DNA of 64,000 bases, taken from contig CAXXWS020000004.1 in the NCBI GenBank assembly GCA_963665325.3, positions 192,001-256,000 on the forward strand, given 5' to 3'. Both the position numbers and the translations under genes were made by a program. Below are positions 2,548 to 11,519 of this stretch, piece by piece. This DNA is from Alphaproteobacteria bacterium. Its GTDB lineage: Bacteria > Pseudomonadota > Alphaproteobacteria > Bin95. The notes beneath the pieces were generated by a model, which was given only the letters and a program-made list of their open reading frames with translations, had not been told where the DNA came from and made no database searches. Each line of letters begins with the position of its first letter. Positions within the stretch are counted from its first letter, which is position 1.

Positions 2548-2642
2548 GGAGGGGAATCCGGTCCGGTGGCCGGCTCGGTCTTCAAAACCGCTGCGGCGGC
2601 GCATCGCTGCCAGGTGGGTTCGACTCCCACTCTCCTCCGCCA
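2548..2642 (+). tRNA. selC: tRNA-Sec (UCA)
   Basis: 8-bp acceptor stem GGAGGGGA/TCTCCTCC, anticodon loop CTTCAAA in a CGGT/ACCG stem, long variable arm, 5-bp T stem GTGGG-TTCGACT-CCCAC, discriminator G plus encoded CCA; 95 nt, 8/5 fold. Confidence 0.95.
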
Positions 2643-2819
2643 GTCCGGGCGTATGCAGACATCTCGTTTGGATTTGCATCCGCTGCGCCCGCCGGGCCGA
2701 CCGCACCGCACTCCGCGCCGCTTTCGCCACTTCCGCCCGGGTCCGCAGCTGCCCGCGTTGTTTTCCACAAGATGATGACTCATTGGTTCTGAAATTTGGT
2801 AATATTTCCCAAAACAGGA

Positions 2820-2847
2820 CTTGACCCTCAGGAAATTATGCTAAGAT
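2820..2847 (+). promoter_or_regulatory. Sigma70-like promoter of element copy A
   Basis: cTTGACC-N15-TAAGAT with an extended -10 TG; same spacing in copy B (cTTGACC-N15-TAGTAT, 11485-11458 on -). Confidence 0.55.
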
Positions 2848-3146
2848 AGGTCCAAGGGAGGTGGCGTCCGCGCGGACCGCTTCCCTTCGCGTCGGCCCGG
2901 CGCGGAACGACCCCGATTCAGCAGACAGGTGAAGTGCGCCCTCCGGCTCGCGCGCGCAATCAGGCGCGCGAACCGCGCCGGCGCCAACACGCGCCCGCGC
3001 CCGCCCGCGATACGCGCGAAACAGGGTCGTTCCCCGCCGGGGCGGCCTGTCTGTCCGTCAACGCCGTCCCCGCCGGCCCGGCGCGGTCCCGCACCGCAGC
3101 CGGGCTTCCGGTATCGAACGCCAGCGGAACGAAGGAGCCGCACCCC

Positions 3147-4127
3147 ATGCCCATCATCCAACCCGCCGTCGCGCTGTCCACACGCCAGGAGGCCTTCTGC
3201 CGCCACTATGCGGTTTCCGGCAATGCCGCAGACGCTGCAAGGCAGGCGGGCTACTCCGACCGCTCCGCCCGCCAGACCGGCTGCGCCTTATTGGAACGAC
3301 CCTACATTGTGGAACGGCTGCGGCGCATCCGCCTGTCCTGGAAGCGCACCGAGAGGGACGAGGCCCGTATCCTGCTCGCCCGGCTGGAGCAGGCCTGGGA
3401 CGCGGCCGTCGCCAGCGGCTCGGCCTACACGATGCTGCGGGTACTGCGCTTCCAGGCCGAGATTGCAGGGCTTACGGGGCCGACAACCGCGCGCCGTGCG
3501 GGGCTCTGGCCGATGCCGCACGAGGACGAACTCGGCGAGATCGAAGCGGGCGAGGCGCAGGAGGCGGGCACCGAGCCCGGCCCCTTGGCCGAGGCCGTGC
3601 GCAGCGGCCTCGACAGCGCCCGATGCGCGCTCGCGCGGCACCATGCCAGCCGGGAGGAGCTCGAGGCGCAGGAGGGTTTCGACCGGGCCGCGCACGAGGA
3701 AGTTGCCCGCAGGATCGCCGGAGCCGTCGAGGAGCGGACGCGCCTGCCCGTCTGCTTCGAGGCTCCCGCACCGCCCCCGGACGACGACCGGCCCCCCGCC
3801 GACGACCCGCCCGAGGAGACCTACGAGAACTGCCCGTGGGCAGGCGGCGAAGGGTCTGGCGACGAGGACAGGGTCGACGGTGACAGGGCCGACGGCGCCG
3901 AACATGACTGGCTCTACCAGCGCCGCAACGGCTACGCCGAAATCTACGACCCCTGGGCCCCGGAGGAGGTCCGGCAGCGAACGCGGAACCGCCTCGAACG
4001 GGAAGAGCGGGGCAGCGGCGAAGACGGTGACTGGAGTGGACCGGCAACGAAAAAGAATAAGAAGAAGAGGGCAAGGAAGACCGGGCCCGAGGGCGCCGGT
4101 TCCGCGCCGGACCATGACAGAACATGA
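3147..4127 (+). CDS. Orphan protein with N-terminal phage terminase small-subunit-like HTH domain and acidic low-complexity tail
   Basis: LSTRQEAFCRHYAVSGNAADAARQAGYSDRSARQTGCALLERPYI resembles the Terminase_2 pattern LT.KQ..F..EY...NAT.AA..AGYS..TA...G..LL..P.I; AAGGAG RBS. Confidence 0.75.
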   Translation: MPIIQPAVALSTRQEAFCRHYAVSGNAADAARQAGYSDRSARQTGCALLERPYIVERLRRIRLSWKRTERDEARILLARLEQAWDAAVASGSAYTMLRVLRFQAEIAGLTGPTTARRAGLWPMPHEDELGEIEAGEAQEAGTEPGPLAEAVRSGLDSARCALARHHASREELEAQEGFDRAAHEEVARRIAGAVEERTRLPVCFEAPAPPPDDDRPPADDPPEETYENCPWAGGEGSGDEDRVDGDRADGAEHDWLYQRRNGYAEIYDPWAPEEVRQRTRNRLEREERGSGEDGDWSGPATKKNKKKRARKTGPEGAGSAPDHDRT

Positions 4128-4138
4128 CATTGCATGAC
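4113..4138 (+). repeat. Three CATGAC boxes at 10-bp period
   Basis: CATGAC at 4113, 4123 and 4133. Confidence 0.85.
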
Positions 4139-4185
4139 ACTTCCCAAGGGGTCTCCTGCGGCGAGGCCGCGCCATGCCGGGACAG

Positions 4186-4277
4186 CCTCCCTCGCAAGCG
4201 AAGGAGGGAGACAAGGAAGTCAGGCCGGCGCCATGGAATCCCCTCGCCCCGCTTGCGGGGAAAGGCCGGGAGAGGGG
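4186..4277. repeat. REP-like palindromes between convergent genes
   Basis: cctccctcgcaagcgaaggaggg and cccctcgccccgcttgcggggaaaggccgggagagggg resemble alphaproteobacterial REP-type hairpins; a related fragment cccgcaagcgggagggggg lies at about 1172-1190. Confidence 0.55.
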
Positions 4278-4306
4278 CCGGCTGGCCGCGCGGCCCCCGC
4301 CGTCGC

Positions 4307-10403: not shown

Positions 10404-11108
10404 ATGGTGAAAGCGCTCCTGTTCGATGTGTTCGGCACGGTGGTGGACTGGCGGGGATCGGTAGCGCGCGAGGCGCGCAAGGCGCTGGCGCCGAAGGGCT
10501 ACGACCTCGACTGGCACGGTTTCGCGCGGCGCTGGCGGGACCGCTACCAACCCGCGATGGAGGAGGTCCGCAGCGGGGCGAGGCCCTACACCATCCTCGA
10601 CGTGCTGCACCGGGAGAATCTGGAGGCCCTGCTTGAGGAGTTCGGCGTGGCCGGCCTGAGCGAGGCCGAGAAGGACGATCTCAACCGCGCCTGGCACCGG
10701 CTGGACCCGTGGCCGGACGCGGTGCTGGGCCTTACACGGCTCAAGCGCAAATTCATCGTCGGCACCTGCTCCAACGGCAATATCGCGCTCATGGTGAACA
10801 TGGCCCGCCATGCGCGACTGCCCTGGGACGCGATCCTGGGGGCGGAGGTCGCCCGGGCCTACAAGCCGCAGCCGGACGCCTACCGCCTGAGCTGCGAGGC
10901 GCTCGGCCTCGCGCCGGAGGAAGCGATGATGACGGCCGCCCACAATGGCGACCTGCACGCCGCGGCCGCGCAGGGCATGGCGACGGCGTTCGTGGCGCGA
11001 CGAACCGAACACGGTCCCGGCCAGACGACGGACCTCGAGGCCGACCCCGGATTTACCGTTGTCGCGGAAGACTTCATCGACCTCGCGGACCGGCTCGGCT
11101 GCCCCTGA
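10404..11108 (+). CDS. Haloacid dehalogenase type II
   Basis: FDVFGTVVDW, SNGN, YKP, AAHNGDL motifs. Confidence 0.9.
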   Translation: MVKALLFDVFGTVVDWRGSVAREARKALAPKGYDLDWHGFARRWRDRYQPAMEEVRSGARPYTILDVLHRENLEALLEEFGVAGLSEAEKDDLNRAWHRLDPWPDAVLGLTRLKRKFIVGTCSNGNIALMVNMARHARLPWDAILGAEVARAYKPQPDAYRLSCEALGLAPEEAMMTAAHNGDLHAAAAQGMATAFVARRTEHGPGQTTDLEADPGFTVVAEDFIDLADRLGCP

Positions 11109-11138: not shown

Positions 11139-11519
11139 GTCATGATGTGTCATGTTTCGTCATGGTTCGGCGGCTGGCGGCCGGCGCTCCGGGTCTTCCG
11201 TCCGGTTTCCTGTTTTCGCCATGGTCTCTCCTTTCCGTCCGTCTTCGTTCCACTTCCGCCGCCGACAGTTTGCCCGAGCGGCGGGTCCCTGTTTCGCGCG
11301 TATCGCGCGCGGGAGGGCGCGCCCGTTAGCGCCGGCGCGCAGGAACCCAGGCGCAGGACGCACGTCACCCGTCGGTTTAATGGGGGTCTTTTTTCGCGCC
11401 GGCGCGAAACGGGAAAGGAAGCGGCTCCGCGGACACCGCCTCCTTCCTCCTCGCTCCATACTACCACAGATATTCTGAGGTCAAGAAAAATTAGGAATTA
11501 TTGCGAAATATTTTAGAAC
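11139..11519 (-). mobile_element. Unclassified dispersed element, internally deleted copy B
   Basis: Reverse complement aligns with 2786-3026 and about 4075-4138; GTCATG at 11139, 11149 and 11159. Confidence 0.55.

Follow-up and report, generated by a model that had tools for sequence, protein, structure and literature searches.

A dispersed family of intergenic elements with phased CATGAC boxes and a small-terminase-like gene in an alphaproteobacterial genus

Two stretches of similar DNA lie ~7 kb apart in the genome of an alphaproteobacterium, and one of them encloses a gene whose product resembles a phage small terminase (TerS). What are these stretches, and what is a packaging-type gene doing in one of them? 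The window analysed here is the whole 64,000-nt stretch (contig CAXXWS020000004.1 of assembly GCA_963665325.3, positions 192,001 to 256,000, forward strand), and the element in question occurs in it as copy A, which lies on the + strand, with an AT-rich tract opening it at 2786 and the third CATGAC box closing it at 4138, and as copy B (11139..11519, − strand). The original prediction had described an unclassified element consisting of a promoter, a structured leader, an orphan TerS-like gene and three phased boxes, with a second, deleted copy nearby; all of its coordinates are correct and the features are present where it placed them. We find that A and B are members of a dispersed family with ~60–70 copies in the window's own genome (designated G000; 5.58 Mb in five contigs, C1–C5; other G and L labels denote genomes and loci of relatives). 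The reading that we prefer, and to which we give about an even chance of being right, is that they are members of a transposase-less family of autonomous and non-autonomous elements, genus-restricted and intergenic, capable of spreading now or until not long ago, whose TerS-like protein recognises the box array.

Local blastn yields 70 loci in G000, which disposes of the possibility that only two copies exist; within the window, A and B are the only members. The leader of copy A has at least 40 scored matches in the genome (166 first-look candidates). A 21-mer (CGCGATACGCGCGAAACAGGG) that is identical in A (3006-3026, +) and B (11287-11307, −) recurs as 63 matches when up to four substitutions are allowed, and 51 of the 63 are followed by a box triple, sought within 1.4 kb and found 76–1107 nt downstream. 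Searched for independently of the 21-mer, triple-box sites with at most one mismatch in all number 67, versus 0 in the same genome reversed without complementation, and exact arrays number 58 (control, 0). The 21-mer lies within 1.5 kb on the 5' side of 57 of these 67 arrays; of the ten without it, several are preceded by a leader that has diverged, and three or more appear to be solo arrays.

The copies fall into a long and a short form. Five are full-length (~1.35–1.4 kb), each with a 326-aa gene; their proteins are 90–100% identical and their DNA is 85–93% identical to that of copy A. Some 50–60 short members (0.3–0.7 kb) have no intact gene and keep both end modules. Internal-deletion remnants of the gene are found at C3:1324863-1325168 and C1_2446969, and the relatives carry many gene fragments, comprising either the first 35–144 codons only or only codons ~243–297. 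Retention of both ends with loss of the middle is typical of elements that derive from an autonomous one and are no longer autonomous themselves. In place of the gene, short members have basic, loosely conserved mini-open reading frames (mini-ORFs) beginning MPKT.. (~41 aa), MEERHAG.. (~29 aa) or MQE.., and some hold internal tandem repeats or other inserted repeats. One such unit of ~48 nt (..AACGCCGCCATCTGCAATGTTCGCCGCGTTCGGCGCGGCGGCG..) stands in two to four tandem copies between 21-mer and mini-ORF (C3_1198967, C4_746589, C4_243273, C3_374356 and C1_2384706), and one frame of it reads as repeated MFAAFGAA...

Copy B belongs to the short form. Its leader aligns with that of A at 172 identical positions (2786-3026, +, 241 nt, against 11519-11287, −, 233 nt), and its parts on the − strand are TTGACC at 11484-11479, TAGTAT at 11463-11458, the 21-mer, a 20-codon ORF at 11222-11160 and the boxes at 11164-11139 (low ends 11159/11149/11139). 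It lacks 27 bp of the conserved core that its ortholog in the relative G011 retains intact. Sequence comparison makes it an old, decaying family member and not a private deletion derivative of A.

Among the genomes compared, the family is confined to part of one genus. The comparison set consisted of 16 other genomes of the genus plus genomes of other genera (14 for the leader DNA). Leader DNA is present in 13 of the 16 and in none of the 14; exact box arrays occur in the same 13 (9–171 each), in none of the remaining three (G001, G003 and G014), and, with controls at 0, in none of the 20 genomes compared from two sister genera. The TerS-like gene is found in 12 of the 13 array-bearing genomes, with 6–17 matches each, and the thirteenth (G009) has no such gene and only nine arrays. 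In the sister genera, weak N-terminal matches to it were seen in two of ten genomes of one and in none of ten of the other. The carriers are labelled as metagenome-assembled genomes (MAGs) of uncultured Alphaproteobacteria or Rhodospirillaceae, one of them as a Spongia bin, and in draft genomes many element matches abut contig ends. A search of a plasmid collection gave no match to the element, and a search of literature listings yielded no account of such an element family.

Individual sites differ in occupancy among the genomes. At locus B, G000 and G011 carry an element, whereas in G016, G005 and G009 the site is empty and the convergent genes are 15–25 bp apart; the L011 locus is empty in G009. 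Conversely, 23 elements of relatives had usable flanks, and G000 has clean empty sites for three of them (L047, L063 and L079). At locus A, tRNA-Sec and the ilvD/edd-type gene are separated by 1,664 bp in G000 (window 2643-4306) and by 64 bp in G004 (L134), where the element is absent; homology with relatives stops just past the tRNA gene. Our conclusion is that both spread and loss of the family have occurred repeatedly in the genus. The spacer at locus A is variable in other ways: in G010 (L136) it consists of 385 bp of other repeats, a TerS-type element follows the same tRNA-Sec in G016, and a leader follows it in G007 and G012.

What the copies have in common is best seen in copy A. Family-wide similarity starts at 2786, in a stack of left ends and in an alignment of the five full-length copies, with an AT-rich tract resembling an UP element (2786..2820, +; consensus TTTGTTC-N9-TTTGAAATAATTCC). 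A small hairpin and a GTTGTTTTCCACA tract immediately before it (2738..2785, +; a terminator-like site) may form the outer left end of the full-length element; a GTTGTTTTCCACAGG tract recurs 5' of TerS-type copies at other loci of another genome (L073, L074 and L079). A promoter-like site follows at 2821..2847 (+), with TTGACC at 2821-2826, a 15-nt spacer, TAAGAT at 2842-2847 and TG at 2839-2840, and the stacked left ends share the pattern TTGACc-N13-TGTGnTAgAAT. A consensus promoter scanner did not call this site because it accepts spacers of 16–18 nt only; the orientation bias of the elements (below) suggests that the promoter is active.

Downstream of the promoter, folding predicts a 5' hairpin at 2856..2885 (+; GGGAGGTGG...CCGCTTCCC). 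A stem of at least 7 bp is present in 46 of 54 copies (mean 8.8, versus 6.4 in shuffles), five of the eight outer pairs show changes on both sides, and 15 cells are changed on both sides versus 6.4 in shuffles, none of 500 of which reaches 15. Between this hairpin and the GC-rich core lie a palindromic CGCGCCGGCGCG and an A-run. The core itself (GCGCAATCAGGCGCGCGAACCGCGCCGGCGC; 2954..2984, +) is the most-copied part of the family (~66 blast matches), and its columns, as well as those of the 21-mer, are invariant or nearly so in 49 sequences from several genomes. No covariation was seen in the helices of the core, which are broken by one-sided changes, so that what is conserved there is primary sequence. 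RNAalifold finds 11 pairs only in the 49-sequence leader alignment, with no compensatory change, and the single-sequence fold of the leader has z = -2.7; for this reason, we claim a structured RNA only for the 5' hairpin. In a scan with Rfam 15, only tRNA-Sec passes the gathering score, and nothing better than E 1.4 is found in 2700-4200. The region that follows is variable; another hairpin, a Shine-Dalgarno sequence and the ORF are located there. The promoter, the alignment of the two leaders, the shared 21-mer and the phased boxes were thus all read correctly from the sequence at the outset.

The gene of copy A (3147..4127, +) encodes 326 aa and uses the TGA of box 2 as its stop codon. Judged by sequence and by model, residues 10–80 form a genuine helix-turn-helix (HTH) domain of phage small terminases of the SF6/SPP1 G1P type, as the original prediction had surmised for the N-terminus. 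Pfam Terminase_2 (PF03592) matches with E 2.4e-12 (residues 11–80 on profile positions 2–71 of 141), PHROG 51 (small terminase) matches at 3.5e-14, and the N-terminal HTH retrieves 4zc3, 2cmp and 3zqp from the PDB by sequence. In an AF2 model based on an alignment of 36 sequences, confidence is high for the HTH (12–49) and for two long helices (52–106) and low past 110, where helices at 146–199 and 247–289 and disorder are seen, and there are no strands; its top Foldseek matches are 4zc3 (TM 0.82, root-mean-square deviation 0.8 Å, 42% identity, 50 columns) and 3zqq. Invariant residues lie almost all within 10–121, and the C-terminal ~200 residues are acidic, helical and disordered. The Pfam match ends at position 71 of 141 and beta strands are absent from the model; the part responsible for oligomerisation and for binding of the large terminase (TerL) is therefore missing or replaced.

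No match of the 326-aa product to a transposase, recombinase or other enzyme family was found in Pfam, NCBIfam or PHROGs, and an ESM Atlas search with residues 120–326 gave no usable match. A homo-oligomer prediction for four copies of residues 1–115 scored 0.12 against a mark of 0.42, which speaks neither for nor against a ring. The comparison with the small terminases of SF6 and SPP1 (2cmp, 4zc3 and 3zqq) is limited to the N-terminal HTH, which is the same. Unlike these proteins, the element protein has neither a central oligomerisation domain nor a beta-barrel, and its gene has no adjacent terL, portal or capsid gene, is present in 5–17 copies or fragments per genome, and has its own promoter and leader. 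Public records nevertheless label the protein ‘terminase small subunit’.

Directly before the Shine-Dalgarno sequence of copy A stands a direct repeat of the form GAAC-N7-GAAC (3116..3130, +), which we take to be the consensus of the alphaproteobacterial LexA (SOS) box. It is present at this place in four of the five full-length copies as GAACGCCAGCGGAAC (in one copy, GAACGTTAGCGGAAC). Only 119 such sites exist in the whole of G000, and the upstream region of lexA carries GAACTAATGTAGAAC. One further copy, C4_114150 (G000:C4:~114000), has its usual promoter replaced by an upstream region with a perfect GTTC-N7-GTTC box (GTTCGTATTATGTTC) and may be a LexA-controlled variant.

The 3' module consists of three CATGAC boxes with an exact 10-bp period (4113..4138 in copy A, +; starts 4113/4123/4133) in the consensus CATGACaAAACATGACAyTTCATGACA, followed by a conserved tail, AyyTCgCnGGAGTGGGCC (4139..4157, +). 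Family similarity stops after this tail, both in a stack of 51 right ends and at the right junction of locus B. The 10-nt spacing places ATG and TGA triplets in all three frames, and ORFs indeed end as ..HDxT-stop at box 2, as ..HDIS-stop at box 3 or directly at box 1. Within the genus, the boxes are conserved whatever the reading frame. The array is likely to be the recognition site of the TerS-like protein.

Distant relatives of the protein bear on this pairing. In other MAG lineages, TerS-like proteins with 44–57% identity are again multi-copy (2–3 loci fetched per genome). Their genes have no large leader; in 11 of 15 loci, GAAC-N7-GAAC, here with an AT-rich spacer, stands directly behind a strong promoter, and phased boxes of the form ATGAC-N5-CTGAC-N5-CTTAC occur one to three times within or at the end of the ORF. 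That boxes accompany the TerS-like gene even in these leader-less genera makes a protein and binding-site pair plausible, and suggests that the HTH protein and phased boxes are an old pair to which the leader is a genus-specific addition. Of the ‘dispersed TerS-plus-binding-site module’ envisaged in the original prediction, the dispersal is accordingly confirmed and the pairing is credible. Just 5' of the distant TerS-like genes (L103-L120) lie dense arrays of long palindromic repeats based on GTCAT(T/C)CCGACCG..CGGTCGGAATGAC, which share the ATGAC pentamer with the boxes.

We propose the following working model. A full-length element would comprise, in order, the AT-rich tract, a sigma-70-like promoter with extended -10 site, the 5' hairpin, the GC-rich leader, the LexA-type box, the gene and the CATGAC array. 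The small number of full-length copies would supply the TerS-like protein, ancestrally under SOS control; this protein would attach to the phased array of every copy along a single face of the helix and would mark these copies for an enzyme, supplied in trans by the host or a prophage, that copies or moves them. New copies would survive only in intergenic DNA, with the outward promoter running in the direction of neighbouring genes, and the box array would stop translation of internal ORFs in every frame before host sequence is reached.

Several observations weigh against a mobile element of this kind. Terminal inverted repeats (TIRs) are absent: the stacked left and right ends are unrelated and directional. 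Target duplications are inconsistent: L047 has 0 bp, the L011 locus ~10 bp (GCCATGACCG) and L079 22 bp, and at locus B no duplication is evident. On either side, inserted segments are 40–160 bp longer than the conserved core, and as these extras are unique sequence, the mobile unit has ill-defined ends. At L017, the polymorphic unit comprises the element plus a downstream class II aldolase gene, which could reflect gene loss rather than insertion, and neither L014 nor L017 offers a clean empty site for the element alone. A mobility enzyme is neither encoded by the element nor identified in trans; the original prediction, which had noted no transposase or intact integrase nearby and no target duplication, is borne out in so far as no transposase, integrase or consistent duplication was found. 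The G000 copies are also old, the identity of each to its best partner reaching at most 92.9% (median 76%; 32 of 51 have a near-full-length partner), so that recent movement is not visible in this genome. Finally, the boxes of the distant genes always read in one frame, ..(D/N)(H/P)DISLH.., and judging from these sequences their conservation could be at the level of the peptide.

Known routes of movement were considered and rejected. An IS200/IS605-type mechanism does not fit: no HUH (Y1) TnpA gene is present in the element, the bases 5' of the left end vary, and element orientation follows the GC skew in only 22 of 51 cases (a weak test, given abnormal-looking skew curves for several contigs). 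On C1 (2.57 Mb), for example, the cumulative skew rises almost monotonically from a minimum at 1.9 kb to a maximum at 2.55 Mb, an unusual shape for a circular replicon with bidirectional replication. Retro-mobility, considered on account of the variable flanks and duplications, was set aside because every copy includes the untranscribed promoter; the single RVT_1 match of G000 (C1:451037-451468) lies in a 326-aa open frame ~25 kb from a Mu-like prophage. Site-specific integration at CATGAC-like targets was suggested by a CATGAC-like box 5–17 nt 5' of the left end in A, B_C3_82k, E and the L011 locus, and was rejected as a general rule, since most copies have none. At L079 (record OY730441, compared with G000:C1:2184018-2184039), a 1,683-bp insertion contains a TerS-type element, the 22-bp direct repeat is single in G000, and the insertion has imperfect inverted ends (~17/20 positions). 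These inverted ends were rejected as a family feature, as the end motif is absent from G000.

A bolder version of the mobile-element reading would make this a new, transposase-free class, in which an ancestrally SOS-induced TerS-type protein on a helically phased hexamer array recruits a host or prophage nuclease or replication activity that copies the element, and miniatures spread promoter–leader–stop/start cassettes to positions 5' of host genes, genus-wide in sponge-associated Alphaproteobacteria. We consider this version doubtful.

The best-surviving alternative is that the copies are dispersed regulatory cassettes, that is, a portable promoter and leader with an operator array that wires ~60 genes to a domesticated, SOS-linked, TerS-like transcription factor. 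Leader and short upstream ORF would tune expression, and the three-frame TGA/ATG boxes would uncouple or restart translation. This possibility, a serious rival that partly overlaps our preferred reading, is the less probable of the two; the original prediction had itself offered a domesticated HTH regulator with its own sites as an alternative. By intergenic type, a crude GC3-based gene caller, covering 69–79% of each contig, places the 51 boxed elements in 30 same-strand, nine convergent and 12 divergent regions, against a background, from a still cruder gene call, of ~60% same-strand, 21% convergent and 19% divergent. Within same-strand regions, 26 elements are co-oriented with the genes and four are opposed (p 6e-5), and overall 38 of 51 have a co-oriented gene downstream. 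The bias agrees with an outward promoter that is active and with selection that removes antisense insertions, and it is also expected of regulatory cassettes. The 26:4 ratio, together with the following, speaks for a regulatory role: a co-oriented ORF starts at most 170 nt from the 3' end in 34 of 51, the downstream frame is open to a box ATG in 17 of 51, and no terminator follows the boxes (right-end stack and terminator scan). The same holds for the linkage of the GAAC-N7-GAAC box to the gene and for the near-invariance of core and boxes while the remainder has drifted to ~76% identity.

Against a regulatory role, 13 of 51 elements either have a convergent gene in front of them or are directed away from genes. 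Moreover, the 20 of 34 downstream ORFs that were scanned (lepA, ssb, alanine racemase, dapF, solute-binding proteins and hydrolases among them) have no common theme and all encode ordinary enzymes, transport or housekeeping proteins. The box ATGs are probably not real starts, because Pfam domains begin 4–100 residues into the upstream-extended frames, and near residue 600 in the dapF frame. Copy B has lost part of its core in G000 and has not been replaced, and three genomes of the genus live without the whole system.

It is more doubtful still that the family consists of multicopy genes for a small RNA or a small protein, in which a structured RNA, a basic peptide of 15–60 aa ending in ..HDxT or ..HDIS, or both, would have expanded by duplication and the TerS-like gene would be the cargo of one member. 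This would account for a promoter in every copy, for the compensatory changes in the 5' hairpin, for the recurrent MPKT.. and MEERHAG.. ORFs with good Shine-Dalgarno sequences, and for the ..HDxx-stop tail that two frames through the boxes yield. Four small contigs from two metatranscriptome libraries likewise match leader, ORF and boxes, a match that does not prove transcription or establish its starts or ends. However, no Rfam family matches, the core helices do not covary, and the peptides show little conservation and differ in the frame in which they end. Homology limits that are shared at unrelated loci, together with empty orthologous sites, are also unlike tandem or segmental duplication.

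That leaves the packaging machinery, with which the small-terminase likeness would first be associated. In phages, pac sites are located within or next to terS genes, and that of P1 uses hexamer repeats; by analogy, the copies might be packaging-initiation cassettes, at which the TerS-like protein brings the large terminase of a helper phage or gene transfer agent (GTA) to the arrays, so that adjacent chromosomal DNA is packaged and transduced and the short copies serve as extra pac sites. The DNA-binding domain is genuinely of the TerS type, repeats at the end of the gene resemble the pac arrangement, the LexA-type box suggests co-induction with prophages, and one prophage is at hand. The only large terminase found in G000 is a T4-type TerL on C1 (~483 kb) in a Mu-like prophage (G000:C1:474000-493000, L165) with Mu portal, Mu F-like protein, Mu gp27-type protein, lysozyme and Mor-like activator. 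The prophage also has an MT-A70 methyltransferase, and its Mu F-like head protein (717-aa frame) has a C-terminal ADP-ribosyltransferase domain. Nothing was found that links the elements to this prophage. No HK97-type capsid (PF05065) or PF03354 terminase was found in G000, and hence no cluster like the GTA of Rhodobacter capsulatus was detected. We regard packaging as very improbable, and this part of the original prediction as unsupported: about nine in ten copies have no terS-like gene, the oligomerisation and beta-barrel part of TerS is absent where the gene is present, the only TerL lies on another contig beside its own Mu gp27-type protein, and conservation of promoter and leader equal to that of the boxes would go unexplained, as would co-orientation with genes.

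Returning to the mobile-element reading, it is useful to set the family beside known systems as they are generally described. As in phage pac systems, short repeated motifs stand in or beside the gene. With P1 pac/PacA and with the TerS of Staphylococcus aureus pathogenicity islands and phage-inducible chromosomal islands (SaPI/PICI), it shares a TerS-like protein, direct hexamer repeats and the idea of redirecting a helper. Unlike P1 pac, the array has three boxes with an exact 10-bp period that supply start and stop codons in all frames, and there are dozens of exact arrays in G000 and up to 171 in a genome of the genus. Unlike a SaPI/PICI satellite, the element is a single-gene unit of 1.35 kb with no integrase, replication or capsid-remodelling genes, no att repeats and no helper-responsive repressor, and no helper was identified.

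Closer parallels exist among repeats. Like MITEs (miniature inverted-repeat transposable elements) and the Correia elements of Neisseria, the family has tens to hundreds of short intergenic copies that are internal deletions of longer coding copies, shows insertion polymorphism, and carries an outward promoter able to affect neighbours. Unlike MITEs, it has no TIRs or fixed target duplication, its long form encodes a DNA-binding protein and no DDE, HUH, serine or tyrosine enzyme, and its most conserved part (core plus 21-mer) is internal and not terminal. With repetitive extragenic palindromic (REP) sequences and bacterial interspersed mosaic elements (BIMEs), it shares GC-rich palindromic sequence, strictly intergenic location, restriction to a genus and high copy number; it differs in its tenfold greater length, its modular build and its directionality, and in having a promoter and ORFs as well as a master form that codes for a protein. 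No link to a REP-associated tyrosine transposase (RAYT) was seen, and no search aimed at RAYT was made.

If the preferred reading is true, a phage packaging-recognition domain has been reused as the sole protein of a proliferating element, a strategy of mobility outside the known transposase families. In uncultured symbionts, dozens of unrelated genes would then have received identical promoters, leaders and translation-insulating arrays on their 5' side from one repeat family. Practical consequences follow as well, as such repeats break draft assemblies (hence the many matches at contig ends) and the ‘terminase small subunit’ annotation can mislead prediction of prophages and satellites in such MAGs.

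As to the neighbourhood of the two copies in the window, copy A lies between adenosine deaminase and tRNA-Sec on one side and an ilvD/edd-type dehydratase on the other. The tRNA-Sec gene (2548..2642, +; ARAGORN, and Rfam RF01852 with 72.6 bits) ends 144 bp before 2786, so that the element starts ~100–145 bp downstream of it. The wider neighbourhood (adenosine deaminase, tRNA-Sec, ilvD/edd-type dehydratase, lyase and DsbA) is without phage head genes. Copy B likewise has convergent neighbours, on one side a + strand ORF whose end lies near 11108 and on the other a DsbA-like gene. ARAGORN, Rfam and the ORF calls thus agree with the earlier description of copy A as following tRNA-Sec and of both copies as lying between convergent genes. 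Other repeats share the intergenic DNA of these genomes. A different repeat of ~150 bp stands beside the element at L014 (positions 1934-2090; G000:C4:~1065400-1065560) and has at least ten copies with 89–94% identity in G011, and other GC-rich repeats of REP-like kind (..CCCCGGCTCGGGGGCCGGGGCGACG..) are found repeatedly between genes and also within some of the elements.

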